64,000 nt of DNA. It comes from a virus. Under the pieces are notes generated by a model. That model saw only the letters and a list, made by a program, of their open reading frames with translations. It did no database searches and was not told where the DNA came from. The position numbers and the translations under genes were made by a program. Positions 26,868 through 45,621 of the stretch are shown here, in pieces; within the stretch, counting starts at the first letter, position 1; the number at the start of each line of letters is the position of its first letter. The stretch is from the IMG/VR virus record IMGVR_UViG_3300045988_144650. One strand, given 5' to 3'.

Positions 26868-27380
26868 TTAATTTCCTTTGTAATACTCTTCGTGAGGATA
26901 AAGTGCATGGATATCTACATCCATATCACTATTATCGTTTCCGGTGAGTACAAAACTGTCTTCAGAGAAGAGATATCGCAAAAGGCGCCCCTTGTTACTT
27001 GTGGTCTTGTCCACAAACCTTTGGTGGTCATCTTCGCCGCAGTGGTCTACGCTTGCATTCACCACATAAGAACTGCTTCCGTATTTGTGGTACACCGCTT
27101 CGTCGAACTCGCACTCGACACCAATACTATCAAGCGTTTCCATAATAAACGCCATGACATCTTGTGCTTTTTCTCTGCTGTAAAGACTCAGAAAACTGGC
27201 GTAAAGATATGCTGCCTTTTCTTCAGGGGTGTCAAGTCGATCAAAACCCCAACCAAAATCTTCACAACGGAAGACGAGTTTGTCAGGGTAAGAAAGTTCT
27301 GTGTTGCGATTAGTTGCAATACAGATACTGTGGGTACTGCTGGAGTTTGTTTCAAAAACACCGCGCCGTTCCTGTCTCAT
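26868..27380 (-). CDS. Member 3 of the conserved-N-terminus paralog family (MRQERRGVFETNSSSTHS).
   Basis: The likely start is the internal ATG preceded by AGGAGA, which makes the conserved motif the exact N-terminus. Confidence 0.5.
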   Translation of the reverse strand: MRQERRGVFETNSSSTHSICIATNRNTELSYPDKLVFRCEDFGWGFDRLDTPEEKAAYLYASFLSLYSREKAQDVMAFIMETLDSIGVECEFDEAVYHKYGSSSYVVNASVDHCGEDDHQRFVDKTTSNKGRLLRYLFSEDSFVLTGNDNSDMDVDIHALYPHEEYYKGN

Positions 27381-27453
27381 CGGGTTTCTCCTCTCGTTCG
27401 TATTTGAAAAGAATTCGTAATCCATTATAGATCTCTTTAGTGTTGAAGAGAGA

Positions 27454-27609
27454 TTATAATGCAGAAGAACACACGAAGTGATCTCCGCACGATCCTTTAG
27501 GATCGAAGCAGATCACGAGTGTGAAAAGTAACAAAACCTTACTTCGATTTACAATACGAAGCGACTGCCTCTATGTATGATTGTGTATGGCAGACCATGT
27601 GCATTATAA
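27454..27609 (-). ncRNA. Family-1 structured element, short copy D.
   Basis: Terminal inverted repeats TTATAATGCA and TGCATTATAA flank SL1 (CTGCC/GGCAG) and the conserved SL2 CTTCG-ATTTACAATA-CGAAG. Confidence 0.4.
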
Positions 27610-27707
27610 ATTCTTTTCGGTTGTTTATCGTTCGCAACCTGAATAAAGTGCTTTTGGATCTATAGAGATAAATTCCTGGAAAACCCCGTTTTCCTGGAAT
27701 TTAGCGC

Positions 27708-27815
27708 TATTGATACAAAACATCTTTATTTACAACGGGGTATGGGGTTTACCCCAGATAAGCTTCTCAAACCTTTACTTCGATTTACAATACGAAGCCA
27801 CCCTATGTATCAAAG
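27708..27815 (-). ncRNA. Family-1 structured element, short copy E.
   Basis: a1-like CTTTGATAC and a2-like GTATCAA with the conserved SL2 CTTCG-ATTTACAATA-CGAAG. Confidence 0.35.
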
Positions 27816-27848
27816 AAATGGGTAAATGTTCGTTGCAAACGCAAAATA

Positions 27849-28443
27849 TTACTCGTGGAAGTGGAACATAACCTCTTCCATTTTGCCAGGTCTTAAGGCC
27901 GAAACATAAATCTTATCGAAAGCCCATGTTCCAACCTCGGGATCGTCTCCCCGGTAATCGCCACCGCCCTGACCGTTGCCGATACTGGTGAGCAGAGGCA
28001 GAGGATTGATACACCAACCCTCTTTGTCTTTGTTTTCTGCCACATACTTTTCCATGTCGATGTAGCAATTTCTTGTGATGTTCACAATGAAGCAATCCGC
28101 CTCATCATTGGAAAGCTTGTACTGCGGCAGCTTTCTGTCAATCGGCGTGATAACCTCTTTTCCATCACTCCAGAGAGTATTGTAGAGCCGCATGAAATCC
28201 TTGCGGTCTGTGATAAAAGCATCGCTGAAGCAACACTCATCATCAACTACGCTGTCAGCATAATCGCCGACCCACGCCAGTCGCTGAGGAGTGCCGTCAA
28301 GGTTCTGAAGAACTGCGTTAACAAAATCATTTCCAACCCAAGAATGTTCCATGAGCTTCAGACCGTTGCCGTAATCGTGAGAATAGGCAGTCTGTTTGGT
28401 CCCGTCATCTGCAATCAAGAGTGGCTTGTAATACTGACCCATA
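27849..28443 (-). CDS. Hypothetical protein with a Gly-rich GNGQGGGDY motif.
   Basis: The real start is probably ATG at 28443 after GAGGAAGAAAGG. The track start at 28532 lies inside tRNA-Leu. Confidence 0.45.
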
Positions 28444-28482: not shown

Positions 28483-28569
28483 TGGTACGGATAGTGGGAC
28501 TTGAACCCACACATCATTGCTGACATTAGCACCTGAAGCTAACGCGTCTGCCAATTCCGCCATATCCGC
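28483..28569 (-). tRNA. tRNA-Leu (anticodon CAG), type II, CCA encoded.
   Basis: Manual fold: acceptor GCGGATA, anticodon loop TTCAGGT, long variable arm, T-arm GTGGG-TTCAAGT-CCCAC, 3' ACCA. Confidence 0.7.
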
Positions 28570-28742
28570 ATATTTCTTTGGTCGGCTTCCCGCTTAGATT
28601 GTCACATCGTCTACTTGGGAGTAAAGGTCTCGTTCGCAAACAACCGTGTATACCCGATTGCTCCGCAGTTTTCAGCGGACATTTTCATTCTCTGTGTGGT
28701 AAGCCGATAATCGCACACATCATCTGGGAGCTACCCAGCCAC

Positions 28743-28833
28743 TGGCGGAGCAGATAGGACTTGAACCTACACACCCTTTCGGGCTACTCACGGTTTAGCA
28801 AACCGCTGCCTTACCAATTAGGCTTACTGCTCC
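28743..28833 (-). tRNA. tRNA-Ser (anticodon GCU), type II.
   Basis: Acceptor GGAGCAG, anticodon loop TTGCTAA, long variable arm, T-loop TTCAAGT, 3' GCCA. Confidence 0.7.
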
Positions 28834-28837
28834 ATAT

Positions 28838-28913
28838 TGGAGCTGGTGGACGGATTCGAACCCCCGACCTACTGATTACAAATCAGTTGCTCTACCGACT
28901 GAGCTACACCAGC
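28838..28913 (-). tRNA. tRNA-Thr (anticodon UGU).
   Basis: Canonical D-arm AGCTCAGTCGGTAGAGC, anticodon loop TTTGTAA, T-arm GGGGG-TTCGAAT-CCGTC, 3' TCCA. Confidence 0.8.
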
Positions 28914-29527
28914 ATCTCTTTATAGGGTTTTTCGCGCTTCTGCAGATTTCCACGCCTTGTCCTTACCGTCTATCCCTATTGCCACATGGGATCACAGACC
29001 CTAAACACTTCTGCTCTATGCCGGTTGTGTTCTGATACCGGAAAACATTCTGGGGACTTTATTTCACCTTGTTGCTCCAGCCCTCAAGGGTAACTCGGCA
29101 AGTGGCTTGCCTATTTGGATTTTGGTGCCATCATCTCAGCCATACACTCCGGCCTAAACCTAAGTTTGCCAGAACCTCACCGATTGCTCCTATGTATGCC
29201 GTCCTCGCCTCTGACTGAAATGATGTGCCGACACCTTCCATACCGTCTCACTTGCAAAATAAAACAAACTACGAACGGGGTGTGGTAAGCACATACCACC
29301 CAAACCTCTGCTTAGTCCCGCCGGTTCTGGTTTACGACATGGTTTGGTGCTCATGCCCTTGAGCTATTAGGCTATTTAACTATCTCTCACCGGCTTGATT
29401 TGCTTTTGTTAAGACGGTGCCAGAGCACGCTGCTCATATCCCGTTATCTTCCGCCCATCGTAGTCGATGACCCAGCCACTATATATCATTTCAAGTGGGC
29501 TTTTCCCATACCGTCTAAAGCGTATGG

Positions 29528-29637
29528 CTGGTGGAGAGGGATGGATTCGAACCACCGAAGCTTAATTGACCACACGGCGCCACAAGTCAAAAAGCGGAGA
29601 TTTACAGTCCCCGACTTTGGCCACTTGTCTACCTCTC
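29528..29637 (-). tRNA. tRNA-Tyr-like (anticodon GUA), atypically long at 110 nt with a ~39-nt variable arm.
   Basis: Acceptor GGAGAGG/CCTCTCC, anticodon stem-loop GGGGA-CTGTAAA-TCTCC, T-arm GGTGG-TTCGAAT-CCATC, 3' ACCA. The variable region GCTTTTTGACTTGTGGCGCCGTGTGGTCAATTAAGCTTC forms an extended hairpin. Confidence 0.55.
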
Positions 29638-29655
29638 CATATTGGTAAACTGGTC

Positions 29656-30468
29656 TTATTCCCAGTTTGTCGTAACACGACCATCTGGATGAATAATAAT
29701 ATTGGAATACCCATCCTGATAATCATTATGTTGCTGTTGCCACATATCTCCGAGTGTTACCCTGGCGTGCTTGCCAGCATAATCAAAAGTTGCATACACA
29801 AAGAAGTCGCCAATACGAAATGTGTGAAGATCAACTTCGTGATCGTTTTGTAATTCATTCCAAATATCTACCGAGTAGTCTTTTCGTTCAAGGCCACTAA
29901 GAAACCGAAAAGAAAAGGCATCTGCATCCATCTTCATGTAATCTTTAATGAATGCCAATGTTGGGGTTTCAACCACTGTTTGGACTGTACACCCAGGAAA
30001 CTTACTTGGATTTGGATGAATAAACTCGTTACAGGACAGATTGATATGTGCCAAACCATTTAATTCTGTGCTGAAACCAGAAGTATTTATTGAGCAAAAG
30101 ACACCGTTGCTGTAACTCTGATATGTTTCAACGATTTTTGCAATGTGTTTTGGATATAGACCGGGTTCTCCGCCAGTGATAGTAAGCCTTCCATTCGGAT
30201 GTTCTTTTAACACACGCTTTAGCGCCTCAACCTGGAGCGGAAAATTATTGTTGCCGGACATTGGGTGCTGCCTTTCCAAGCAAAACGGACAGCTAAACGG
30301 ACATTCCTGTGTGGTAATCAGTTGGATATTGATTCGATAGTAAAGAGGCCGACCAAGTGATGTTTTGATTAACCTGTCTCTTAGCCTATATTGCAGATCA
30401 TTATTCATTTCATTCCTTATTTCGTCGTAAGAACCAATGAACGGAATGAAGTTCAACTTGCTACTCAT
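29656..30468 (-). CDS. Radical SAM enzyme, second copy, small.
   Basis: CPFSCPFC is a Cx3Cx2C cluster. ITGGEPGLYP SAM-binding motif present. Confidence 0.7.
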   Translation of the reverse strand: MSSKLNFIPFIGSYDEIRNEMNNDLQYRLRDRLIKTSLGRPLYYRINIQLITTQECPFSCPFCLERQHPMSGNNNFPLQVEALKRVLKEHPNGRLTITGGEPGLYPKHIAKIVETYQSYSNGVFCSINTSGFSTELNGLAHINLSCNEFIHPNPSKFPGCTVQTVVETPTLAFIKDYMKMDADAFSFRFLSGLERKDYSVDIWNELQNDHEVDLHTFRIGDFFVYATFDYAGKHARVTLGDMWQQQHNDYQDGYSNIIIHPDGRVTTNWE

Positions 30469-30493
30469 CTAAATCAACCTCCTTTGCTGTTAG

Positions 30494-30569
30494 TGGTGGA
30501 GATGGTCGGGATCGAACCGGCGACCTCCTGCTTGCAAGGCAGGCGCTCTCCCAACTGAGCTACATCCCC
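30494..30569 (-). tRNA. tRNA-Ala (anticodon UGC).
   Basis: GGGGATGTAGCTCAGTTGGGAGAGC..., G3:U70 pair, anticodon loop CTTGCAA, T-arm with TTCGATC, 3' ACCA. Confidence 0.8.
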
Positions 30570-31226: not shown

Positions 31227-32720
31227 TTAGTGCTTGTCAGCAATCGCGCCGCCCAGCATACCGGACAGCACGGCCATCAGATCCAGGCCGGTTGCATCCT
31301 TGAAACCATCCTGAACCTGCTTCATGCCGGTGGTAACGGCGCCGGTCAGAGTGGAAGTACCACCCTCGTAGATGGTCATGTTGTCGATACCCTCCATAGG
31401 CTTAGCAACGGCAGCGGCAATCTCAGGCATGGTCTTGACATACTCCATTGCCACATCCAGAACCATCTGCTGCTTAGCAGCGTCGCCGTATTCCTTCATA
31501 GCTTCTGCCTTCTTCAGAATGCCTGCAGCCTCAGCCTCTGCCTTAGCCTGAATGGCCTCGGCTTCAGCACGACCCTTGGCAGCGATACCGGCAGCTTCGT
31601 TTTCCATTGCCACACGAGCAGCTTCGGAACGAGCCTTTTCAGCAGCAGCTCTCTGCTCTGCCTCAAACAGCTCTGCAGCAGCCTGCTTCTGACGCTCGAA
31701 CAGCTCAGCCTCAGAAGACTTCTGAACCTCATACAGCTTTGCATCAGCTTCCTGCTGTGCAGCGTACTTATCGGCCTCAGCCTTCTTCTTGATCTCTGCA
31801 TCCAAAGAACGCTCACGGATAGCAACCTCGCGCTCCTTCAGTTCGATTTCCTTTTCCAGACGAGCCAGGTTGGCTTCGGCTGTCTTGGTTTCGATGGATG
31901 CACGCTGCTCCTGCTCCTGAATTGCATAGGCAGCATCTGCTTCTGCTCGCTTGGCGTCCTCAATCTTCTTCAGCTCAGCCATCTGAATGGCAAGCTCGTT
32001 CTGACGCTTAGCAATCTCCTGATCGGACTTAACCTGAGCCTCGTTGGCAGCCATAGCAGCCTGAGCCTGAGCAATAGCAATCTCCTTCTCTGCCTGAGCC
32101 TTGGAAATTGCGGCGTCCTTGGAAATCTGAACAGTGTTCTCCAGACCGAGGTTGTCGATCACGCCGTTGCGATCCTTGAAGTTCTGAATGTTAAAGGTAG
32201 TCAGCTCCAGACCCATATCGTTCAGGTTGGGAGTAACATTCTCAATGATACGCTCGGCAAAAATCTTCTTGTCACCCTGGATCAGTTCCTTCAGAGTGGT
32301 CTGAGAAATAATCTCACGAATATTACCCTCCAGAACAGGAGTAATGATTTCGCGAATCTGATTGGGATTATAGCCAAGGAATTTAGAGGCTGCGACCTTC
32401 AGCATATCAGGATCTTTAGCGATGGACACATTGGCTACTGCGTCAACCATAATGTTGATAGCATCCTTGGTGGGGATCTCATCGCGAGAAGTGAAGTCAG
32501 ACTGAATGTTTTCCAGAGACATATAGTCGACACGCTGGATGATAGGAATAACCAGTGCGCCCTGACCGATAATTGTTCTTGCACCACGGGGGCCGGTGAT
32601 GACCATTGCCACATTGGGAGGTGCTTTCTTATACATAACCTTGCCAATGAAGATCAGAAGAATGATTGCGACAAGGATGCCGACACCGGCGGTTGCGTAA
32701 GGCAAAATCATTTCGAGCAT
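31227..32720 (-). CDS. Flotillin-like SPFH-domain protein (FloT/YuaG-like).
   Basis: N-terminal transmembrane anchor, an SPFH region, then a long Ala/Glu/Gln/Lys-rich coiled coil (EA repeats) and a C-terminal flotillin tail. Confidence 0.75.
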   Translation of the reverse strand: MLEMILPYATAGVGILVAIILLIFIGKVMYKKAPPNVAMVITGPRGARTIIGQGALVIPIIQRVDYMSLENIQSDFTSRDEIPTKDAINIMVDAVANVSIAKDPDMLKVAASKFLGYNPNQIREIITPVLEGNIREIISQTTLKELIQGDKKIFAERIIENVTPNLNDMGLELTTFNIQNFKDRNGVIDNLGLENTVQISKDAAISKAQAEKEIAIAQAQAAMAANEAQVKSDQEIAKRQNELAIQMAELKKIEDAKRAEADAAYAIQEQEQRASIETKTAEANLARLEKEIELKEREVAIRERSLDAEIKKKAEADKYAAQQEADAKLYEVQKSSEAELFERQKQAAAELFEAEQRAAAEKARSEAARVAMENEAAGIAAKGRAEAEAIQAKAEAEAAGILKKAEAMKEYGDAAKQQMVLDVAMEYVKTMPEIAAAVAKPMEGIDNMTIYEGGTSTLTGAVTTGMKQVQDGFKDATGLDLMAVLSGMLGGAIADKH

Positions 32721-32763
32721 TAAGTTTTCTCCTTTATATTCTTGTGATTGGTGACTACGGATT

Positions 32764-33179: not shown

Positions 33180-33863
33180 CTACACACCTCCGAGCGGGAG
33201 AACCCTACGATAAAGAGCTGTGTGTCTATCATCAATGTCTAAGTCGACATGATAGTGACCAAAATACCAATGCTTAAACCTGCAATTTTCCTCTACAAAC
33301 TGCAGAAAACTGGTGACCGCGTCGTTCTCATACCAACTTGCAATTTTGGCCTGTATGCTTTTGGATGCACAATGCGTAACTATGTAATCAACACACCAGT
33401 TGTGCTTTTCGAGCGTTTCAACAGCGTGTTCGAACTCTGCTTTGCTCGGGATTTCTTCTTCCCACCAAGATATATTTGGCTTTCTCAAATGCTTGTCATG
33501 AGATGATGCCCCGCCCATGCAGAACACCTTAGCTCCATCAATTTCAAACACCTCGCCACGCATCAAATGAAACAAGCTTGGCTGAATTTGGTGAACTGAC
33601 CCGCCATACTGATTTACAATGGGGAACTCTGCGAGCATTCGGTGGTTTTCATGGTTGCCATCCACAAAAAGAGTGGTGAATGATTTTTCTTCGTACCACT
33701 TCTGCCAGTATCGGTCACATTTCGATCCGTCCCAAACACAACCAAAATCCCCGCATACAATTAGGGAATCGTTTTTGCTCATGGACTTTTGTTGAGGGAA
33801 GTTTCTCATTGCAAGCTTATGAATGTCGATATCTCCATGAGTATCGCCAGTGATATAAACCAT
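33180..33863 (-). CDS. Calcineurin-like metallophosphoesterase.
   Basis: MVYITGDTHGD...GDF...GNHE...GHYH motifs. Confidence 0.7.
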   Translation of the reverse strand: MVYITGDTHGDIDIHKLAMRNFPQQKSMSKNDSLIVCGDFGCVWDGSKCDRYWQKWYEEKSFTTLFVDGNHENHRMLAEFPIVNQYGGSVHQIQPSLFHLMRGEVFEIDGAKVFCMGGASSHDKHLRKPNISWWEEEIPSKAEFEHAVETLEKHNWCVDYIVTHCASKSIQAKIASWYENDAVTSFLQFVEENCRFKHWYFGHYHVDLDIDDRHTALYRRVLPLGGV

Positions 33864-33889
33864 CCGTTCACCCCTTTCCTTTTCGTTTC

Positions 33890-34218
33890 ATCTGTAATCT
33901 ACAAGTACACCCGTCTTCTTGAGGAAGCTCTGGAGGGACTCCTCGTCGAGAGCTGAGGCTTCGTGAAGCGTGAGTTCGGGATTTCGCATCGGGTCGGTGA
34001 GCGAGAAAACCCTTGTAGTTACAGGGGTTTTCGAGTGTTTCCGAGTGAGGAAAATTTATTTATTTCCTGACCCTGCGAGCAGTGTCATCTCTTGCGCCGG
34101 GCGAATTCGCTGGAGGCGCCTGCCGCAGCGGCGTGCCCCTGGTATTTCCCCCCGGCCATTCGTAACTCCGATTTACAATACGGAGCATTAACTGAAACAG
34201 TTAATAATGCATTACAGA
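33890..34218 (-). ncRNA. Family-1 structured element, long copy B (about 329 nt, retron-ncRNA-like architecture).
   Basis: Minus-strand a1 ATCTGTAAT immediately followed by G, then the conserved CATTA-SL1-TGC-SL2(CTCCG-TATTGTAAAT-CGGAG)-TTACGAATGG module, a variable GC-rich ~230-nt body, and a2 ATTACAGAT 27 nt upstream of the next gene start. Confidence 0.45.
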
Positions 34219-34233
34219 TGATATTTTCTGGAT

Positions 34234-34788
34234 TTATCTCCAGTGAATTAGATACAAACTGTATTCCTCAGACTCAAGATCCTCGGCGAGTCTGAAGCCG
34301 ATTGCTTCATACTGTGCCCAAATCGCAGACCAGTCGATATAGTCCGTGATTTCGTCTTTGCTGATAAAGTCGAGGATTTCCTTGGTGATACCTGTGTCGA
34401 AAGGAACGCCAAGTTCGGTAGCTATGTAACAGGCGGCGAGTTCTTCGTTACCCATTTTCCAAGTGACCTCGGAAAGATCTTCAAACATGAAGTCATTTTC
34501 TTTGATGCGGCGGACAAATTCTTCGTCTTCAAGTTCTCCATCAACGGCATCCATAATCAGCGCAAGAAGTTCAGCCGTCATACCGGGATTCTCGCTGTTG
34601 ATGTCGTCAATAACTTCATTCAACTCCCAAACATCCATCGTTTGGATACCGGGAATAGACGGCGTACTGTCGATGATGACATACTCGTTTTGGCGATTCA
34701 GTTCAGAGCGAATATTAGATGGGATCGTGACAGTCTTATCCGCGCAACCGTCATCCCAGTCCTGCAGTTCAAGTTCCAGTTTAATCAT
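34234..34788 (-). CDS. Hypothetical acidic protein.
   Basis: 184-aa ORF preceded by AGGTGATGG. Confidence 0.45.
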   Translation of the reverse strand: MIKLELELQDWDDGCADKTVTIPSNIRSELNRQNEYVIIDSTPSIPGIQTMDVWELNEVIDDINSENPGMTAELLALIMDAVDGELEDEEFVRRIKENDFMFEDLSEVTWKMGNEELAACYIATELGVPFDTGITKEILDFISKDEITDYIDWSAIWAQYEAIGFRLAEDLESEEYSLYLIHWR

Positions 34789-34820
34789 TTGCCATCACCT
34801 CTTATTGTTTTGTTTGGTTT

Positions 34821-35157
34821 CTTTGTAATCATTACATATATATCCTGATTCCCTTCAGTGCGATCATCGATGGGATGCCAATCCCAGTTCTGTCGTCATC
34901 TGATGTGATTTGGACTTCTTGCAGTTGGGAAACCACCTAATTCCGAGGTCTTAGTTGGTGTTTTGCACGGAATTATTTATTTAGTCTTGGTTCAACCGCC
35001 GGAGACTGGGTGCCTCTTGAGGTGTTAACGCGTTGACGGCCGGCGGAGCTGCGGGCGTCACCAGTGGTGGGCTATGTGTTTCCTCCCGACCATTCGTTAC
35101 TTTGATTGACAATACAAAGTGCTACTTGCCAAAGACAAACAGCTATGCATTACAAAG
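34821..35157 (-). ncRNA. Family-1 structured element, long copy C (about 337 nt).
   Basis: a1 CTTTGTAAT-G and a2 ATTACAAAG carry compensatory changes relative to copies A and B. SL2 is CTTTG-TATTGTCAAT-CAAAG. The conserved TAACGAATGG block is present. Confidence 0.45.
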
Positions 35158-35166
35158 AAATTTGGT

Positions 35167-35361
35167 TTAGAATATTGCTTGTTCGTACTGTGCTTGGGTT
35201 ATTTCGCCGTTCTTGCAAAGAGCGTCAATCCAGCACGACCACTCAAACTGAACCTTACAGTAGTCGTCCTGACGCGCTCTCAGGTAGGCTTTATAGTCAC
35301 CGCCGAACGCTTCGTCGATGAATCTTCTTCTCAGGGTTTTTCGTCTTTGGCGTCTATACAT
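35167..35361 (-). CDS. Small basic protein.
   Basis: 64-aa ORF (MYRRQRRKTLRRR...). Coding status is uncertain. Confidence 0.3.
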   Translation of the reverse strand: MYRRQRRKTLRRRFIDEAFGGDYKAYLRARQDDYCKVQFEWSCWIDALCKNGEITQAQYEQAIF

Positions 35362-36050
35362 TATCCGTTGTCAACCTCCTCGGCAAAGAAAGTTTCGTTC
35401 ATATATGCCAGAACACGGTCGGCATATCCACTCGTGCCCGGGCTACCAGTGTTATAGCAGGTAAGGGCAGACTCGACTGACCCGTACTTTTCTATCAATT
35501 CGGCAAGCAAATCGCATCCGACTCTGAAGTTTGAAAGAGGATCGGAAAGGTCTGTCACACCAAGCCGCTCCATTCTTTCCTGGTGCCAACGAGGCTGAAC
35601 CTGCATATACCCGATGCTGTTTCCATTGTCGCCATTTACATTCCTGTATGTGGACTCACGGAAAATAACCGCCAAAGCAAGCTCATAAGGGCAGCCTGTT
35701 TCTTCACAAGCTGCCCATACAAGTTCCTGCAATTCATATTCAAGGGAAATATTTTCGTAGTATCGAAATGTCTCTTCCGGTTCCGGTTCTGGGGTGGGCT
35801 CTGAAACTAACATGGTTTCGCGTGGAATATACACCGGTGGAACAACCATCGGTTCAAGTTTTAATGGAATAGTTTCGTATGTATCGCTGATAGCAGGAGT
35901 TGGGATTTCCGGCTCAGCATCTGCAGCCGGATTTGAAAGGCCACATAAAACCACGGTTACGAATGCCAGAAAAAGCAGCATTGCGATGATATGCGGAAAC
36001 CGTCTGTGAGAACGGCGCCGTCTTCGTCTTTTCTGATACAAGGGTAACAC
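35361..36050 (-). CDS. Lytic transglycosylase (SLT domain) with an N-terminal membrane anchor.
   Basis: ELALAVIFRESTYR...GYMQV matches the catalytic E-S and GLMQ-like motifs of the SLT domain. A hydrophobic helix lies near the N-terminus. Confidence 0.75.
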   Translation of the reverse strand: MLPLYQKRRRRRRSHRRFPHIIAMLLFLAFVTVVLCGLSNPAADAEPEIPTPAISDTYETIPLKLEPMVVPPVYIPRETMLVSEPTPEPEPEETFRYYENISLEYELQELVWAACEETGCPYELALAVIFRESTYRNVNGDNGNSIGYMQVQPRWHQERMERLGVTDLSDPLSNFRVGCDLLAELIEKYGSVESALTCYNTGSPGTSGYADRVLAYMNETFFAEEVDNG

Positions 36051-36075
36051 TCCTCTCTTGTGACCGATGCTGAAA

Positions 36076-37221
36076 CTACTGGTTGAGATCCTCGCTCATG
36101 CTTTTCATAACATCGGTGTGGAACTTCTCATTGTTGTACTTGATTACGCTATCTACATACTCTTTTTCGACCATGCTGTAATAGTTGACCAAACCACGCA
36201 GAACCTGTACATCGTGCAGATCCCAATGGCGACCATTCTGCCGGTCGAGAATGTAGTTGCAAATCATTGCCCGCAAGCGCTGTTTGTTCTTATAACCAAT
36301 GGTGATCTCATTATCCTTATTGAGCATCACACCGAGGTTCCAATTACTTCCAGCGCGTGAGCCATAGCGCGTCTTTTCGTCTTTGATCTTAAAAGGAGCA
36401 CCAAACTCTGCGAGGGTAGAATTGATAAAGCCGATGATTTCATCCTTATCAAAACCCTTACGGCTTGAAAAGAGAGAGTCATCGGCATATCTGGTATATA
36501 CATAATGATTTCCATTGAAGTCACGCAGGCAATTGTTGATACGATGGTCAATGGGAATCATCATCAGATTTGTGAGCATAGGGGAAATAGGTGTTCCCTG
36601 CGGGAGACCACCGTTCAGGAAACACAGATCCAACGCTTTTTCCAAAGCATCAAATCCGCGCTGAGATTTTACGATCTCGCTAAATGGAAATACTTTGGAA
36701 AGCATAGACATCAGGAACTTCGGAGTTGTGCTGCCAAAGAAGTCAGAGAAGTCGGTCTTGAGGAACCAATGACTCTCATTCTTCTGATGACGCTTTACCG
36801 CGTCGATGGTAGATCTTCCGGGAACATAAGCAAATGCGCTGGTATGATACAGCGCAAACATCTGGGTTTCAAAAATCGTTTTCAGATTTCTGAGCGCATT
36901 CATCAGCGCTGGCTGCGGCGCATTGATCTCACGCAAGCCACCGGACTTCTTAGGGATATAGAACTTATCGTAGAGGTCGCTGCGCTTTGCCTCGTAAAGT
37001 TTAGCGTTCTGCTTGCAAAACTCTTCCAAGGTTACGACCATTGCATCAATATCAAAACGCTCAAGGAACTTGGGGTTCAGAACTTTGGAAAAGTAAGTTC
37101 TTGTGTTGGTCTCATTGGGGTTGACCATGTTGGCGAGATTGACATTCCCCGAAATAATTTCATCAAATGTGATCTGATGGAAAATCGGAGACTGCATCAG
37201 CGTAATGTAAGGCACTTCCAA
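36076..37221 (-). CDS. Reverse transcriptase, retron-type.
   Basis: RT motifs: IPKKSGGLREINAP (1/2), AYVPGRS, FLKTDFSDFFGS (A), GLPQGTPISPMLTNL (B'), YTRYADD (C), and a downstream KT....NLGVML resembling the retron VTG region. Start follows AAAGGAGG. Confidence 0.75.
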   Translation of the reverse strand: MEVPYITLMQSPIFHQITFDEIISGNVNLANMVNPNETNTRTYFSKVLNPKFLERFDIDAMVVTLEEFCKQNAKLYEAKRSDLYDKFYIPKKSGGLREINAPQPALMNALRNLKTIFETQMFALYHTSAFAYVPGRSTIDAVKRHQKNESHWFLKTDFSDFFGSTTPKFLMSMLSKVFPFSEIVKSQRGFDALEKALDLCFLNGGLPQGTPISPMLTNLMMIPIDHRINNCLRDFNGNHYVYTRYADDSLFSSRKGFDKDEIIGFINSTLAEFGAPFKIKDEKTRYGSRAGSNWNLGVMLNKDNEITIGYKNKQRLRAMICNYILDRQNGRHWDLHDVQVLRGLVNYYSMVEKEYVDSVIKYNNEKFHTDVMKSMSEDLNQ

Positions 37222-37242
37222 ACCTCCTTTTTCATTATTCGT

Positions 37243-37569
37243 ATCTGTAATCTACATACTCTGTGATGAGATGACCAGATCAGCTCAGGATACTCGTAGA
37301 TCTTCAGATTCCTGGATTCGGACATCTGATGGCTATGAAGTAACGGTGAACTCCTGGTTGTGCAGGTAATGAGTCTTGGATTTCCTGTGGTTCCTTAAAG
37401 TTTTCTTCAGGAGACACTGATGAAACTCTTGACTTTTGCTGTATAACCTGCGATGCTGCGACCGAGTCGCTGCAGCGTTTCTGGGTAGCCGGGTATTTCC
37501 CGTCCACCATTCGTAACTTTGATTTACAATACAAAGCACTTCCTATTCGGGAAGTAATGCATTACAGAT
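37243..37569 (-). ncRNA. Family-1 structured element, long copy A (about 327 nt), directly 5' of the RT gene. Candidate retron msr-msd ncRNA.
   Basis: a1 ATCTGTAAT-G at the 5' end (minus strand). SL1 is CTTCC-CGAATA-GGAAG and SL2 is CTTTG-TATTGTAAAT-CAAAG, followed by TTACGAATGG. a2 ATTACAGAT lies 22 nt upstream of the RT start. Confidence 0.5.
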
Positions 37570-37574
37570 CTCGT

Positions 37575-38456
37575 TTACATCTTTTTCAGAATCGCAAAGA
37601 ACTCCTCTTCATCAATCTCGATGATCTCCTGTGGAGCACTGAGAACCTCATAGTACCCATCGCCGTCAGGCTCATCTGAGATTAGGATTTCAGGATTGAG
37701 TTTCAAAGCTGGGCGCACCCCCACACAATCGTCGCAAGCACAGGCACTGCCGACATCGCCATCGCGATTAACGCAACGCACATTGTACGAGCGGCCAGAG
37801 TTCGGGGAGCGCAGGTAGTAGTACCACTCCTCGTCTTCATATTCGGGCTTGTCATTATTGGGAGTATTTGCGTACAGTTCGGGAGAGAACAGGCAGGCTC
37901 TGTTTGCACCATCCGCAAACAAATCCCAAACCTCACCCTCCTGAATACGGTTCTCAGTTCCACCGCCCACATTGGTTCTGGAGGGCATGAAAACCTTAGC
38001 ATAAATGGTTTCATACTTTTCGCCACCAGTAGGAATATCCTTGGTAGGCAGCGCCGTTTTGATCTCGGACTCCTCAATGGCTTCGACTTCCCACTCCTCA
38101 AAGTAGTGCAGGAAACCAGGCTTGTGAACATAGCCGTAGCGACCATTGTACATCAGGCGATCCTCGGGAGCCGTGTCGTGTTCGTGTGTCGGGCGGAACC
38201 AGTCTGTCCCCTCAGCATTCAGAAACTGATGACTGTTACTTAAGGAGTAGCGGTTATTACCGTAACTCCTGCGGTATTCGTCGGGGTTATCGGGCTCTTT
38301 GGCATCGAACGCACACTGATCTTCCATAAACTCGGTCAAGATCGTGCCGTCGCGATGAGCCTTTACCCAGCAAATCTTATGCGGCATCTCACCGCTGACG
38401 CTATAAGCGCCGAATTTCAGTTTTGCCCCGATGGGCAGGTCTGCGATAGTAGGCAT
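37575..38456 (-). CDS. Hypothetical protein.
   Basis: 293-aa ORF with a Cys cluster CACDDC near the C-terminus. Confidence 0.45.
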   Translation of the reverse strand: MPTIADLPIGAKLKFGAYSVSGEMPHKICWVKAHRDGTILTEFMEDQCAFDAKEPDNPDEYRRSYGNNRYSLSNSHQFLNAEGTDWFRPTHEHDTAPEDRLMYNGRYGYVHKPGFLHYFEEWEVEAIEESEIKTALPTKDIPTGGEKYETIYAKVFMPSRTNVGGGTENRIQEGEVWDLFADGANRACLFSPELYANTPNNDKPEYEDEEWYYYLRSPNSGRSYNVRCVNRDGDVGSACACDDCVGVRPALKLNPEILISDEPDGDGYYEVLSAPQEIIEIDEEEFFAILKKM

Positions 38457-38480: not shown

Positions 38481-39158
38481 TTAGAACGCATCAACCGTGT
38501 GACCAAAAGCGTCGATCAAGATCAGCTTACGCAGATCGCCGCCCTTGACAAAATTGATGAAGTTGGAGACTCCGCAAGCAACAATCATTCTGACTGTCGG
38601 AACCACGGACAGAGTGACATTGCAGGCAGAAACAGGGGTCTCTTCCTTAGCCTCCTCGTGAGAGAATGCCATGCTCTTGATGAAATCCTCAACCATCTTC
38701 TGGTTGTCCCAAGCCGCAGCATAGTGCTGGGCATCAGTCAGTCTCATACGGAAGTCAAACATTCCCTTGACATACTGATTTTCCTTGCACTTGGTGGCAA
38801 TCTCACGGCGGAGGTCGATATTATCCACGCAGAGGAAAACATAACCGGAAAGCCGCTGACCTGTCCAACCATCGGGAACCAACTTAAGCTCCTCCGCGCA
38901 ATCGGGATTGATCTCACACAGGTAATCAGCAAGCGCCTCGATCTTCAGCTTGCCGATGTCGGTCTGACGGAACATCTGGTTTGCGATGTTGTGCGCCTCA
39001 ACCTTGTCGAAATCGTAAAGAGTGATTTTGGTGATACCGAACCGAACCAGATTTTCTGCGACGGTCGATCCGATTGCACCGCAGCCGATGATATGCACAC
39101 GAGAAGTCAGCATATCAGGCTTGAAAAAGTCATAAGACTTGGACAAATCCATAGCCAT
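38481..39158 (-). CDS. E1-like ThiF/MoeB-family adenylyltransferase.
   Basis: Rossmann loop IIGCGAIGSTVAENL followed by ITLYDFDKVEAHNIANQ (compare GxGxxG ... D.D.V..SNLNRQ). Confidence 0.65.
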   Translation of the reverse strand: MAMDLSKSYDFFKPDMLTSRVHIIGCGAIGSTVAENLVRFGITKITLYDFDKVEAHNIANQMFRQTDIGKLKIEALADYLCEINPDCAEELKLVPDGWTGQRLSGYVFLCVDNIDLRREIATKCKENQYVKGMFDFRMRLTDAQHYAAAWDNQKMVEDFIKSMAFSHEEAKEETPVSACNVTLSVVPTVRMIVACGVSNFINFVKGGDLRKLILIDAFGHTVDAF

Positions 39159-39179
39159 TTGGTCAGTCTCCCTTCTTAT

Positions 39180-40082
39180 TTATTTCTGAAAGCGACCGTA
39201 ATCGTAGATGCCGTACTGATCGTCGTCATCGTCATAGCCGCCGTAGTTATATCCTTTGCCGGAACTTCCGATATCGGGCTTATCCTTCTTGCCGCCCTTG
39301 GGCTTGCTCTTGGTCTTATCGGAACCGGTCTGAGCCTGGAAACCCGTCTGCTGCTTGCCATACTGGTAACCACTCTGACCGTACTGGCCTCCGCCGTACT
39401 GATAGGTCTTGGTCTTGACCAGTTCCTTGGCATCCTTGATAAAGGCGTTCAGGTCACAACCCTCATCGCCGATATACAGGTCAACATCTGCGGTTTCGTA
39501 GAGCGTATTGTTTGCCATATCGAAAATCTTGATGTTGCGCTCGAACTTCTTGTTCCAAATCATAAAGATGTAGAACATATCGTCGTCGATCTGGCTCAGG
39601 ATCTTTTCCTGATGGGTGGTATCCACACCGGAGGGGGTCGTGCTGAAATCTACATGAGAATGACCCTGCATACGGATGTTGTTAAACACCTCATCATCGT
39701 GGGTGTAGAGCCAAGTCTGATACGCATCCTGGTCGGTGTTAACGGTAGAACCGGTAACAACCTGGGGATAAACCAGAATGTCAGTGATGTAGAACTTATT
39801 CTTTTCCTTTTCGTCGCGATATGCGACACCGTGCCAAGCGACCTCGCTGGTAAAGTTCTGAACCAACATGGTCATCTTGGCAAATGCGACGGCGGAGAAC
39901 ACAACAGAAGCCCTGTCCTCACCATCCCATTTGAAGTTCTTGGTGTAATTGAGCTTACCGTCGAACATCTTCATCTTTTTGACATTCTCGATAAACTCCT
40001 GCTGAATCGCAGCAATCAGCTCGTCGGTGAGCTTGATCGGCTTACTCATGTGCTTCCTCCTTTTTCTTTTGCTTTTCCGCAT
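39180..40082 (-). CDS. JAB/MPN (JAMM) metalloprotease-domain protein with a Gly/Tyr/Gln-rich disordered tail.
   Basis: GHSHVDFSTTPSGVD matches HxHx7Sx2D with an upstream Glu. The C-terminal 90 aa are low complexity (YQYGGGQYGQSGYQYG...). Confidence 0.6.
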   Translation of the reverse strand: MRKSKRKRRKHMSKPIKLTDELIAAIQQEFIENVKKMKMFDGKLNYTKNFKWDGEDRASVVFSAVAFAKMTMLVQNFTSEVAWHGVAYRDEKEKNKFYITDILVYPQVVTGSTVNTDQDAYQTWLYTHDDEVFNNIRMQGHSHVDFSTTPSGVDTTHQEKILSQIDDDMFYIFMIWNKKFERNIKIFDMANNTLYETADVDLYIGDEGCDLNAFIKDAKELVKTKTYQYGGGQYGQSGYQYGKQQTGFQAQTGSDKTKSKPKGGKKDKPDIGSSGKGYNYGGYDDDDDQYGIYDYGRFQK

Positions 40083-41559
40083 CCTGTGCCTCCAACCACT
40101 TCACTGCATCCAGAGGCGTTGCGGTAGAGCCGTCAGGCATCTGGATAATCTTACCCACATCGTTTGCACAAATCTTCTGCATAAAGAAAGTGCCAGTGTT
40201 GGCTTCGGTCAAATTGATATTGGTTGCGGAACCACAGCAGTTGCTCACTGCCGCGACATAGTCGCGGTTCATCATTGCTTTTCGGATATAGGTCTGATTA
40301 TTACCCAAGCAAGCATAATACTGGATATGCTGGTTGGGGGTATGATCCACAAGAATTTCAGGCGGGAACGAGTAGTTCTTCAGACCGTAATAACCGCCAT
40401 CAGAGAAGTTCAGTTTGTATGCCGCGCAGACACGAAGCTTCATAATTTCATCTCTGAAAATCGCAATCATCAAGCGCTTGATACGCTCGTCGGTCATTTC
40501 CTTGTTCTGGTAACGCTGACCGGTCTGATAGTGACGATAGAAGAAGCTACGGCCAAACTGCTCAATAGCGGACTCGAACAGCTCAGGGTCGAAACTGGAA
40601 ATCGTAGTGGTTACGATAAACTCAATCGTACCACCACTGACACGAACAAGATTGATGGACTTATTGCAGAGCATATACTCCATAAACTCGGTATCTTCGC
40701 CATCATCACCGTCGCCGCGCATTTTCGCAATCAAACCCAGTTCCTGTGTGGTCAGATCAGCAATCCGCACATACAGGTCGCGGAACTGCTGTTCCAACTG
40801 TTCAATGCGATTACGGTCGTTGGCAATCTGCTGCTGAACATTCCGAAGTTTGTCCTTCTCAAAGGCATTCTCAAAACCACGGAGCATATTGCGAACCGCC
40901 TGCGTTCTGAAATCAAACTTCTTAGCGAATTGTTCAATCAGCTCGGTATAATCAGGAGCATAACGCTTGGTGAGGGATCGGATCAGTGCAACCTCTTCGT
41001 CATTGAAGGGGTTTTCACGCACATACCAAGGCATATAGCGGGGAATCAGAGACTGCAACAGATGCCATCTCTTGATATCCAGCTTTTCAACGAAAATCAG
41101 AACGGACTTACGCTCCTCGCTGATAAACACACGGGCATGAACCTTGCCGTTCTGTTCCAGAAACTTAGATACATCGGGCAGAGCGATAAAAGCATTGCCC
41201 AGTGCGGCATTTACACCGCCATTGTCGATAGCAGCGAAGCTTGCGGTGTTGCCCTCTTCGTCACCATCAAAAGTGTGAATATGCAGAGCACCGGGAACTG
41301 CAGACATAATATCGGTATTTCTCAGGAATGCACGGACGCAATCCTTAGCAGTTGCTCCGTCAATTTCATACTTACCATAACGAGAGGCAGTAACGCGAAG
41401 CAAAATGGACTCTTCTTTCGGAACCCTTTTGTACATAAGGGCTCGCAAGGTCGCCAGAAAAGAGGTATCGCCTCTAAAGTCCTGCCCATTGATGTTTTGG
41501 AACAGACCATCGGCGACCTGTTTGGTGAGAGTCAGACCAGAAAGAGTTTTGTTAAACAT
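40042..41559 (-). CDS. Hypothetical protein, 505 aa.
   Basis: Large ORF with a central coiled-coil-like region, co-directional with and upstream of the JAB and E1-like genes. Confidence 0.45.
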   Translation of the reverse strand: MFNKTLSGLTLTKQVADGLFQNINGQDFRGDTSFLATLRALMYKRVPKEESILLRVTASRYGKYEIDGATAKDCVRAFLRNTDIMSAVPGALHIHTFDGDEEGNTASFAAIDNGGVNAALGNAFIALPDVSKFLEQNGKVHARVFISEERKSVLIFVEKLDIKRWHLLQSLIPRYMPWYVRENPFNDEEVALIRSLTKRYAPDYTELIEQFAKKFDFRTQAVRNMLRGFENAFEKDKLRNVQQQIANDRNRIEQLEQQFRDLYVRIADLTTQELGLIAKMRGDGDDGEDTEFMEYMLCNKSINLVRVSGGTIEFIVTTTISSFDPELFESAIEQFGRSFFYRHYQTGQRYQNKEMTDERIKRLMIAIFRDEIMKLRVCAAYKLNFSDGGYYGLKNYSFPPEILVDHTPNQHIQYYACLGNNQTYIRKAMMNRDYVAAVSNCCGSATNINLTEANTGTFFMQKICANDVGKIIQMPDGSTATPLDAVKWLEAQDAEKQKKKEEAHE

Positions 41560-44345: not shown

Positions 44346-44426
44346 ACCAGGCGGGAAACCGCCTGACCGTAGAAAGGAAAGGAAGCCGAAAGCCAAAGCA
44401 TTCAGCAAAAGTCGCCATGTGGCGAT

Positions 44427-44514
44427 GGCGGAGAGGGTGGGATTCGAACCCACGGAGGTTTTACCCTCGCCGGTTTTCAAGACCGGTTCCTTAAACCAGC
44501 TCGAACACCTCTCC
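44427..44514 (-). tRNA. tRNA-Ser (anticodon UGA), type II.
   Basis: Acceptor GGAGAGG, anticodon stem-loop CCGGT-CTTGAAA-ACCGG, long variable arm, T-arm GTGGG-TTCGAAT-CCCAC, 3' GCCA. Confidence 0.7.
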
Positions 44515-44518
44515 TTAT

Positions 44519-44746
44519 TCAATAGATGGCGACCGTTTTGGTGAACAGAAGATACAGACCCATGGGAGCAGTCAGCAGAACTGCGGTTGCATCTTTATCT
44601 TCAACCGTGGTTCCCTGAGAAGCTATGTAAATGAGCAGGATGCTCATGGCGATCAGCGCCAAACCATAAAGCTTCTGGATAAACAGCTTCTTGCGACGGA
44701 TCTGATTGCGGGTTCTCTTACTAACAGCTTGCGTGCTCATTTTCAA
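44519..44746 (-). CDS. Small membrane protein.
   Basis: 75 aa with a basic N-terminus and two hydrophobic helices. Confidence 0.4.
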   Translation of the reverse strand: MKMSTQAVSKRTRNQIRRKKLFIQKLYGLALIAMSILLIYIASQGTTVEDKDATAVLLTAPMGLYLLFTKTVAIY

Positions 44747-45237
44747 ACCTCCTCAGAATACGGATACTGAATAACTTTGTCCCCATCAACGATGGGGTGA
44801 CGAATGGAAAACCCATATGCGTCGTAGAGATATTCCTCAAACGCAGATGCGATTTCCTCAATGCAGTCATCATCGAAGCACTCGTCCGGTTCGCACTCCA
44901 ACAGAACGGAGAGGTAATCAATGGTTGCGCTGTGGATTTCTCCAAGTCGGTCAAGGTCTTCTGCATCCAAAACCTCATCGCTATCGGTTTCGCAGATGTA
45001 GAGATTGAGAAGCTGCGAGTAAACCTTTTCGATTTCAGCTTCAGAACTTGCTTTGGCTTCGTATTCAACGACTCCGTCCACTTCAACCGTGAAGTAAGGC
45101 AAACCCTCTTCCTCGGTGATGTAAACCTCGGCGCCAACCTCTGCTTCATCAGCGACCAAGCGATATTCGCTCTGCAGGGCAAACCGATTTTCGTTGTAGA
45201 ACTTTCGGATCTCGCCAACAGATACAATCGCTGCCAT
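44743..45237 (-). CDS. Hypothetical acidic protein.
   Basis: Likely start MAAIVSVGEI at 45237 after AAAGGAGG. The track extension to 45291 would run through the family-2 element. Confidence 0.45.
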   Translation of the reverse strand: MAAIVSVGEIRKFYNENRFALQSEYRLVADEAEVGAEVYITEEEGLPYFTVEVDGVVEYEAKASSEAEIEKVYSQLLNLYICETDSDEVLDAEDLDRLGEIHSATIDYLSVLLECEPDECFDDDCIEEIASAFEEYLYDAYGFSIRHPIVDGDKVIQYPYSEEV

Positions 45238-45275
45238 CTGAACACCTCCTTTTCCTGTTAAATTCAAAACTTTCC

Positions 45276-45321
45276 ACTCTGCATTTCTCATGCGGGCTTG
45301 TGACCGCCATTGGCTGCATTA
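45276..45321. repeat. Family-2 element, copy 4 (short form).
   Basis: CTCTGCATTTCTCATGCGG-GCTTGTGA-CCGC-CATTGGCTGCATTAG. The hairpin-1 stem changed ACGG/CCGT to GCGG/CCGC (compensatory). TTGAAT follows 9 nt downstream on the minus strand. Confidence 0.4.
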
Positions 45322-45549
45322 GAAAACCCCTCTTGAGAACAGGTAAGCAGCCGATTCACAAGAGGGGAATTTCCCCCGCGTTCAGGTGTTAATGCGGGAT
45401 TGTTTAATCAATCATAAACTTTAATCATTTGGATAACACCTGCCCAAAGCAAGAGGTCAGCGCTAACCCCTCACTCTCCGCATTTCGGGAATCTTTTCGC
45501 ATACGGTACGCCGCGTCAAGGCTCGTCGCGGAAAACCCTGCCAGGGATG

Positions 45550-45621
45550 TGACATGAGCAAGACTCGAACTTGCGACACGCCGGTCATATCCGGTTGCTC
45601 TACCGACTGAGCTATCATGCC
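45550..45621 (-). tRNA. tRNA-like element or pseudo-tRNA, with no encoded CCA and a noncanonical anticodon arm.
   Basis: Canonical D-arm TAGCTCAGTCGGTAGAGC and T-arm GCAAG-TTCGAGT-CTTGC with acceptor GGCATGA/TCATGTC. The anticodon region CCGG-ATATGA-CCGG gives only a 4-bp stem and a 6-nt loop. Confidence 0.4.

Follow-up and report, generated by a model that had tools for sequence, protein, structure and literature searches.

What does the reverse transcriptase (RT) encoded by the phage DNA of IMG/VR record IMGVR_UViG_3300045988_144650 copy, and are the structured intergenic repeats found around its gene the templates? Retrons are bacterial anti-phage systems of tripartite composition, with one RT, one non-coding RNA (ncRNA) and a toxin effector. 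In the 64,000-nt stretch of this record that was analysed (the window), a first-pass annotation had described three minus-strand copies (A, B and C) of an element with complementary ends (a1 and a2), and had suggested either a trans-acting retron with several templates or put-like antitermination RNAs. Here we provide evidence that the window holds five such elements and that they are probably the cognate ncRNAs of the single retron-type RT, i.e., a natural multi-template retron-like system. We favour this reading because the elements share a covarying anatomy, are strand-specific and bear a fixed linkage to the RT, and because the tip of their second hairpin (SL2) is uniform within a genome.

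Anatomy and covariation of the elements

The search of the window with a covariance model, run with filters off, gave exactly five elements, all on the minus strand: the long copies A, C and B (327–343 nt) and the short copies D and E (211 and 156 nt). Their scores and coordinates are listed in Table 1; the next-best hit in the window reached 10 bits. A 25-nt degenerate pattern matched three times in the window (A, B and C) vs. no match in 100 shuffles, and a looser 17-nt hairpin pattern gave mostly chance hits. Reading of the sequence, pattern and model thus agree on the three copies described at first, and the first-pass mention of 'five copies' is borne out as well, D and E being shorter tandem copies. 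Rfam recognised only tRNAs above the gathering score in the whole window, and nothing at E ≤ 5 in positions 33800–37700 except one chance snoRNA hit.

The common layout comprises a1, an invariant G, hairpin SL1, hairpin SL2, a single-stranded motif, a body, AUGUAG and a2. In A, B and C, the G is followed by CATTA or CATAG, SL1, SL2 with the tip TATTGT(A/C)AAT, T(T/A)ACGAATGG and a G-rich motif, and then by about 230 nt of unrelated sequence, (A)TGTAG and a2. The minimum free energy (MFE) folds of A, B and C clearly showed the closed a1/a2 helix with SL1 and SL2 formed (z = −4.0, −3.2 and −2.2, respectively). The a1/a2 helix amounts to 9–12 bp in A, C, B and D and to 10 bp in E; the 9 nt initially assigned to it hold for A, while the helix extends to 12 bp in C and 11 bp in B. 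The stems, the G after a1 and the spacing from a2 to the next start codon had all been described correctly: each a2 in the window ends about 24–32 nt before a start codon, with a ribosome-binding site between them, so that the gene for an acidic 184-aa protein starts 29 nt after C and the start codon of a metallophosphoesterase (MPE) gene lies 24 nt after B. The short copies occupy the intergenic region 27,380–27,850; both have the SL2 tip of the long copies and a third stem variant, GCTTCG/CGAAGT. Element D, whose a1/a2 helix holds one G-U pair, lacks the A/C-rich body and has counterparts at the same position in loci L009, L010 and L011; element E lies upstream of a 185-aa gene and of the gene for RtcB.

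To evaluate the structure, 104 distinct modules were compared with shuffles and with controls whose 3′ partners were slid by 1–3 columns. The SL1/SL2 cells proved to be paired in 95.7% of cases vs. 68.0% in the shuffles and 30–45% in the slid controls, and the covariation score was 0.682 vs. 0.219 in the shuffles, none of which (0/500) reached the observed value. Double (compensatory) changes were found at 15 of the 17 SL1/SL2 pairs. SL1 cells are paired in 91.6%, with 4–6 pair types per position, and SL2 cells in 98.5%, with double changes at seven of the nine pairs; the SL2 result is not circular because the alignment was fitted to a model in which SL2 was mis-registered. The first SL2 pair is G-U in 90 of the 104 modules, and the fold is therefore specific to the RT-sense strand. 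What had been taken for an invariant SL2 loop, TATTGTAAAT, is nearly uniform within a genome, but it is itself composed of a 1-nt bulge, a 3-bp helix and a triloop, and the inner helix covaries across the family (ATT/AAT, GCC/GGC, ACT/AGT, GGT/ACC).

In 112 of 145 distinct elements, a1 and a2 form a perfect helix of at least 7 nt that abuts the G, compared to 2 in reversed and 4.4 in shuffled controls, and the helix sequences are many and diverse across the family. The G immediately 3′ of a1 is found in 103/103 distinct modules, with N-A-U-W as the next bases, and the base immediately 5′ of a2 is G in 109/110 (consensus AUGUAG). Taken together, the covariation proposed at first for a few stems is confirmed as heavy compensatory change in SL1, SL2 and a1/a2, far above the shuffled controls. 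In one subfamily, RNAalifold predicted a third hairpin (SL3) and an inner long-range helix with some compensatory changes, both of which we regard as tentative. The GGGRGGAAAYAC motif noticed initially is present, and it may tentatively be recast as the 5′ arm and loop of this third hairpin.

The bodies had been described as hypervariable, which was not upheld, and they are not featureless. Their composition is A 0.30, C 0.305, G 0.217 and T 0.18, with A+C (0.60) exceeding 0.5 in 109/110 bodies, and a family-wide zonation is seen, GC-balanced at about +55 to +110 and then A/C-rich and G/T-poor from about +115. The rate of change was estimated from five strains with an identical RT protein, in which the body varies by 17.3% (A), 10.8% (C) and 8.5% (B), the modules by 2–4% and the 3′ ends by 0%. 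In the same strains the RT gene has 3.0% variable columns (34 sites, all synonymous), which by our estimate corresponds to about 12% of the roughly 280 synonymous positions in this gene. The bodies differ by point substitutions of every type; indels are few and the boundaries sharp. Hence, the body is about neutral and drifts at roughly the synonymous rate, with length and composition constrained, and the idea of a hypervariable body or of cassette swapping was rejected since body divergence is about synonymous and indels are few. Mutational equilibrium as a source of the A+C skew was rejected too, because fourfold-degenerate sites of the same strand are T-rich (0.27–0.35) while the bodies are T-poor. 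Coding potential is weak (46/110 bodies open in some frame vs. 28.7 in shuffles); in copy A, the conserved UAG before a2 closes no long frame, and the listed open reading frames (ORFs) end well upstream of a2. An AT-rich patch, considered as a marker of a termination site, was discarded for its loose placement (median +165, interquartile range 136–219). As separate observations, a short (A/T)GTCAAG island recurs about 150 nt from the 5′ end in copy-1 bodies that cannot otherwise be aligned (at about 37405–37398 in A, and in L191, L017, L034 and L015), and one subfamily also has GTACTAACA and ATGTCAAGCA fixed.

Elements and reverse transcriptase across phages

In IMG/VR, 70 RT-homolog loci were found with 47–83% identity to the window RT, on contigs mostly of 50–150 kb. 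A second set of 45 loci was fetched independently via p225, a ThiF/E1-like gene upstream of the RT. The element counts rest on the corrected covariance model R2 (an earlier model, R1, gave 150 hits), which yielded 182 hits in 68 RT loci and 46 further hits in the p225 loci; together with the five elements of the window this makes 233 hits. Elements are present at 68/68 RT loci, with 2–5 per RT, and all 233 hits lie on the strand of the RT. They recur at fixed distances from the RT, namely about 370 nt upstream of its start, about 25 nt past its stop, about 300 nt beyond that and sometimes 7–9 kb further. All copies of the family cluster between 0.4 kb upstream and about 10 kb downstream of the RT; the exact module pattern is confined to RT-bearing contigs.

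The close relatives L008–L013 have the identical five-copy layout. Distant loci have no TATTGTAAAT tip, but a module precedes the RT and one to three further copies follow closely behind it; these downstream copies often stand head to tail, about 290–340 nt apart, with no intervening gene. For instance, the order in L017 is copy 1, RT, copy 2, copy 3, MPE, and the positional equivalent of element B in relatives is the final copy of their array, the one that precedes the MPE gene. The first-pass statement that only one copy adjoins the RT is correct for this genome, where SLT and a 64-aa gene separate the RT from the following elements, but in relatives the positional counterparts of B and C directly follow the RT, often in tandem. 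Syntenic copies were found across phages whose RTs are only about 50% identical. Element A and its positional counterpart in L008, whose RT is 83% identical, agree at 66/67 module positions and throughout the 3′ end, yet their bodies are unalignable; C and its counterpart in L195 have modules of about 97% identity, with the 3′ end and the GC-rich initial part of the body conserved and the middle scrambled.

The SL2 tips vary by clade (TATTGTAAAT vs. CGCCAAAGGC), and their identity is 0.95 within a genome (77% of pairs identical) vs. 0.59 between genomes. On the contrary, a1 and SL1 are copy-specific, with an identity of 0.56 and 1% identical pairs within a genome, and are conserved by position across genomes. 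The paralogous copies predate the divergence of these phages, yet their SL2 tips changed together. Because the tips of such old paralogs changed in concert, the comparison points to one trans-acting partner per genome that would read them, and the adjacent RT would be the obvious candidate for this partner.

The RT itself matched Pfam RVT_1 (1.3e-19), and the top 25 matches listed by PADLOC were all retron RT models, the best being RT_II-A (1.2e-48). Among the NCBIfam models, retron_St85_RT gave 2.2e-54, group II 3.5e-24 and Drt2 7.1e-12, the last over 80 residues only. The best matches among PDB sequences are the retron RTs Ec83, Ec78, Ec67, Kva2 and Ec86 (residues 72–375), and the retron RT matches span the fingers, palm and thumb of the window RT. 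The YADD motif is intact in 120/120 homologs. The RT is thus assigned by sequence comparison to the retron/retron-like clade as a divergent member. A DRT2-type (UG2 clade) RT was rejected as an assignment, the Drt2 model being far weaker than the retron models (7.1e-12 vs. 1e-48 to 1e-54). The start codon of the RT (Table 1) was chosen by comparison with homologs.

Validated retrons share complementary ends, a branching G, short msr hairpins, a long msd hairpin and VTG (PMC8632793; PMC7736814), and a census annotated ncRNAs in the vicinity of retron RTs by an a1/a2 repeat of more than 8 bp, several hairpins and a priming G close to the start, and found G to be the most frequent first templated base (PMC10849725). 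The phage elements display all of these ncRNA features except the long msd hairpin. Compared to bacterial retrons (Retron-Eco1/Ec86 and Retron-Sen2/St85; types I-A and II-A of Mestre et al. 2020), the phage system has in common the retron-clade RT, an ncRNA directly 5′ of the RT, paired a1/a2, msr-type hairpins and a variable template region, and it shares with Ec86 (sequence used: 100% match to E. coli genomes over 170 nt) the unpaired G immediately 3′ of a1 and the G immediately 5′ of a2. It differs in having two to five ncRNAs per RT instead of one, a template region of roughly 150–230 nt that is A+C-rich and without a long hairpin, and an RT with NLG, AVKRH and about 55–70 extra N-terminal residues. 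Moreover, no toxin effector of the PADLOC type was recognised at the RT locus, and, unlike sporadic bacterial defence islands, the system is a core syntenic block of roughly 100-kb phages. We conclude that it is retron-like and not an ordinary member of the retron family.

Two further systems are relevant here. Work with engineered constructs shows that tandem msr-msd arrays, and very long templates too, can be processed by a single retron RT (10.1101/2023.07.17.549397). Like these 'multitrons', the phage locus would provide several tandem msr-msd units per transcript, with one RT producing a different DNA from each; unlike them (they are Retron-Eco1 laboratory constructs), the phage array is natural and ancient, and its copies keep their own a1/a2 and SL1. 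The multitron paper makes no mention of natural arrays (10.1101/2023.07.17.549397), and in the literature searched in full text neither a phage retron with several ncRNAs nor a natural retron array is described. In type VI retrons, reverse transcription of a leader is reported to derepress downstream translation and not to yield abundant multicopy single-stranded DNA, msDNA (10.1101/2025.10.22.683967). The phage elements resemble them in layout only, as ncRNAs in the leader of a downstream gene; type VI retrons are bacterial defence systems with a helix-turn-helix (HTH) protein and a small toxin.

Direct parallels come from Staphylococcus jumbo phages. For the retron-like RT gp206 of MarsHill, the 1.2-kb upstream non-coding region has been 'hypothesized to contain' an ncRNA (10.1101/2020.12.14.422802). 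We found that this region is a tandem array of 4–5 units of 160–205 nt. Each has a1 (7–14 nt) and a G, about 27 nt further a hairpin with the loop TGAATACG and a covarying stem, and then the body, a second G and a2; no clear helix is seen in the unit closest to the RT. Helix sequences vary among the units and among the three phages listed in Table 1, yet they stay complementary, while control anchors gave a mean of 4.4 bp with a 95th percentile of 7. As in the window, a phage-borne retron-like RT adjoins an array of a1-G-hairpin-body-G-a2 units, although the jumbo RT is only about 30% identical to the window RT and has a 200-aa N-terminal domain, and the units are shorter, differ in their hairpin loop and are all located upstream of the RT. 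Our strongest argument that the arrays belong to the RTs is the occurrence of the same kind of array in two phage RT lineages that are unrelated.

Turning to the distribution of the block, DNA searches of GenBank phages gave no match, and at the protein level the sole full-length RT match there was an unannotated human faecal contig (43% identity). Among species-representative genomes, RT relatives occur only on contigs of gut and rumen metagenome-assembled genomes (MAGs) with inconsistent bin taxonomy, mostly Clostridia, which we read as mis-binned phage contigs. The identical RT protein was found on 16 contigs, one of 107 kb; ERZ27229424 and SRR23253298 are examples of samples containing this phage. 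It is also present, with the same neighbourhood, in L264 (ENA ERZ28656527), a scaffold of 384,766 nt compared to roughly 100 kb for other contigs of the family, which could be a prophage, a concatemer or a chimeric assembly. In 44 of the 45 p225-anchored loci the RT sits 300–1,100 nt downstream of p225, and the remaining locus is truncated. Because the loci fetched through p225 all carry the RT, the RT block is a core, syntenic feature of this lineage of uncultured gut and rumen phages.

Weighing the explanations

If the elements are templates of the RT, they would be transcribed within the long minus-strand transcript, and each would fold alone, with a1 pairing with a2 across 150–340 nt and thereby juxtaposing the unpaired invariant G (3′ of a1) and AUGUAG (5′ of a2). 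The RT would recognise the SL2 tip together with the UAAC(G/A)AnUGG strand, presumably acting in cis on copy A and in trans on the remaining copies, and would then prime from the 2′-OH of the G and copy the RNA 5′ of a2 into DNA. The product would be a long, copy-specific single-stranded DNA (ssDNA), probably well over 100 nt and G+T-rich, because the template is A+C-rich and has no long hairpin.

Several observations weigh against this reading. VTG, the long msd hairpin and a single ncRNA per RT with an effector, by which retrons are told, are all missing. The score of the RT with retron_St85_RT, 184.7 bits, lies below the curated cut-off of 235. Region Y is described as guiding a retron RT to its msr; here, VTGV of Ec83 aligns with NLGV, and NLG is found in 118/119 close homologs. 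In region X, NAKIH of Ec83 (the NAxxH position) aligns with AVKRH, where H is kept and N and A are not. The window RT thus keeps just the G and H of both signatures, which are the most conserved residues according to Mestre et al. (PMC7736814). The long-stem msd hairpin has been called indispensable for production of msDNA (PMC8632793), while the largest unbranched hairpin of the bodies is 13.5 bp vs. 12.7 bp in shuffles (the same measure gives 22 bp in 75 nt for the Ec86 msd), and the bodies folded alone are weakly structured (median z = −0.8). Elements D and E lack the motif after SL2, and the G of E is able to pair, unlike that of the other copies. No RT-less relative and hence no case of co-loss was found among the p225-anchored loci. 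Finally, the uniformity of SL2 within genomes and the adjacency to the RT would also fit another phage-encoded RNA-binding protein. Thus, of the retron layout proposed at first, a1/a2, the G, the msr-like hairpins and the retron-type RT stand, and VTG and the long msd hairpin do not; the multi-template proposal shares these two gaps and has gained the homogenised SL2 tips and a second, unrelated phage group.

The last objection leads to the rival that we take most seriously, though we consider it rather unlikely, namely that the elements are cis-acting 5′-leader RNAs recognised by some other phage protein and not by the RT, and that they control the translation, stability or processing of the next gene (the RT, the acidic protein, MPE or p185). 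The position of each a2 of the window just ahead of a ribosome-binding site and start codon speaks for it, uniformity of the SL2 tip needs merely some shared trans factor, and D and E (27454–27840) are distant from the RT (36076–37215). Type VI retrons offer a reported precedent in which leader control and RT action are compatible (10.1101/2025.10.22.683967). However, in most relatives two copies stand head to tail without a gene between them, so that the rule of one leader per gene fails. This rival also leaves unexplained the invariant G next to a1, the invariant G before a2 and the fact that the elements are always linked to a retron-clade RT, in two phage groups that are unrelated. The tandem copies without an intervening gene, the closing helix and the fixed RT link are not accounted for by put- or nut-like antitermination or Rho-related signals serving a long one-directional transcription unit. 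This alternative of the first-pass annotation gained no support and appears improbable to us, even though the unit is indeed long, runs in one direction and shows no surplus of intrinsic terminators, a C-rich, G-poor body without a long hairpin resembles a Rho loading site, and an antiterminator could bind to a conserved hairpin whose tip is fixed. Known put RNAs are short and consist of two hairpins. Antitermination has no need for a covarying closing helix across 150–340 nt, for copy-specific a1/a2 and SL1 or for tandem duplication; moreover, there is no Rfam match, the copies cluster near the RT instead of being spread along the 40-kb unit, and the Staphylococcus jumbo phages carry the same array right beside the RT. 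Promoter or terminator cassettes were also considered and dropped, the counts being at the shuffled expectation (18 vs. 16.6 and 10 vs. 10.5).

Two explanations at the level of DNA can hardly be reconciled with the data. Miniature mobile elements or recombination sites with terminal inverted repeats, against which the elements were to be checked from the beginning, would account for the short inverted repeats bounding each unit and for several units per genome, but they appear very improbable, given that 233/233 copies share the orientation of the RT and keep the same positions across phages, that the end repeats differ between the copies of one genome yet remain complementary, that G-U pairs make the fold strand-specific, and that no copy exists elsewhere in the 64-kb window. 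Still less credible is a diversity-generating retroelement with the bodies as template repeats. A phage RT beside a variable non-coding segment, downstream of a DUF6273 surface-type protein, does recall such elements; nevertheless, the window holds no partial copy (variable repeat, VR) of any body, substitutions among close relatives are of all types and not adenine-specific, the body varies at about the synonymous rate and not faster, and the RT fits retron models far better than others.

Neighbouring genes, possible functions and implications

The block directly upstream of the RT region consists of a ThiF/E1-like protein (Pfam 1.4e-26) and two proteins without assignment (300 and 505 aa), encoded at 38481–41559 on the minus strand of the window, and it is found in 60–65 of the 70 RT loci. 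The MPE gene lies downstream of the elements in 38/70 RT loci and in 9/45 p225-anchored loci; its product has no match among PDB sequences. The debranching enzyme Dbr1 belongs to the metallophosphoesterase superfamily, and a 2′-5′ debranching role of MPE in the system is pure conjecture by analogy. By eye, the C-terminus of the very acidic protein encoded between C and B recalls DNA-mimic anti-restriction proteins. Elsewhere in the window there are two tRNA clusters (28483–30569 and 44426–45621), in which ARAGORN reports a 'tRNA-???' at 45549–45621 and Rfam alone calls a 107-nt tRNA at 29532–29638 that may contain an intron, and a SPFH/flotillin-like gene (31227–32723, 497 aa, minus strand) is mirrored by a 497-aa plus-strand ORF.

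Table 1. Positions of the elements, their parts and the associated genes in the window, and of the arrays in Staphylococcus jumbo phages
Feature	Position	Strand	Remarks
Element A (copy 1, 5′ of RT)	37243..37569	-	327 nt; covariance model 68.2 bits
Element A, ends	a1 37569-37561; a2 37251-37243	-	invariant G 37560
Element A, hairpins	SL1 37555-37538; SL2 37537-37516, tip 37531-37522	-	MFE fold
Element A, rest	single-stranded UACGAAUGG 37515-37507; body about 37506-37260	-	AUGUAG before a2
Element C	34818..35160	-	343 nt; covariance model 66.3 bits
Element C, parts	a1 35160-35149; G 35148; SL2 tip 35114-35105; a2 34829-34818	-	a1 12 nt; tip TATTGTCAAT
Element B	33888..34221	-	334 nt; covariance model 73.8 bits
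Element B, parts	a1 34221-34211; G 34210; SL2 tip 34180-34171; a2 33898-33888	-	a1 11 nt
Element D, short class	27630..27840	-	211 nt; covariance model 28.7 bits, E = 2e-4
Element D, parts	a1 27840-27832, then G; SL2 tip 27792-27783; a2 27638-27630	-	a1 GTTTGCAAC; a2 GTTGCGAAC
Element E, short class, tandem after D	27454..27609	-	156 nt; covariance model 23.7 bits, E = 3e-3
Element E, parts	a1 27609-27600; SL2 tip 27556-27547; a2 27463-27454	-	a1 TTATAATGCA, G included
Reverse transcriptase, 379 aa	36076..37215	-	likely GTG start 37215; ORF list gave TTG 37221
Acidic protein, 184 aa, between C and B	34234-34788	-	no match in Pfam, PHROGs, NCBIfam
Metallophosphoesterase (MPE), 227 aa	33180..33863	-	phrog_1649 5.8e-37; weak Pfam Metallophos_2 0.018
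RtcB RNA ligase	25492-26700	-	phrog_1075 8e-144; downstream of D/E and the 185-aa gene
Jumbo phage array, MarsHill (MW248466)	L268:1163-2403		
Jumbo phage array, PALS_2	L269:1115-2391		
Jumbo phage array, vB_StaM_SA1	L270:1208-2406		

As to the function of the retron-like system, a phage-offensive or life-cycle role is more likely than abortive-infection defence because all sampled members of the lineage carry the block and no toxin effector can be recognised in it. One possibility is that the ssDNAs act as decoys against host defences that sense ssDNA or recombination; alternatively, the system could control the downstream genes that have their ribosome-binding site after a2. More tentatively, both phage groups may carry a natural 'multitron' in which several long hairpin-free G+T-rich ssDNAs constitute a core anti-host function, an idea that we consider possible rather than probable; such DNAs might serve as decoys or sponges for ssDNA-, SSB-, RecA- or RecBCD-linked defences, or as RT-controlled switches of downstream genes.

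The family provides a comparative data set of more than 100 distinct elements with clear covariation for the study of how a retron RT selects its RNA. If the RT does copy these RNAs, the locus would be the first natural retron array and a case of retron machinery used by the virus itself. It would also offer an enzyme that naturally makes long hairpin-free DNA from several templates, an activity now engineered for genome editing.

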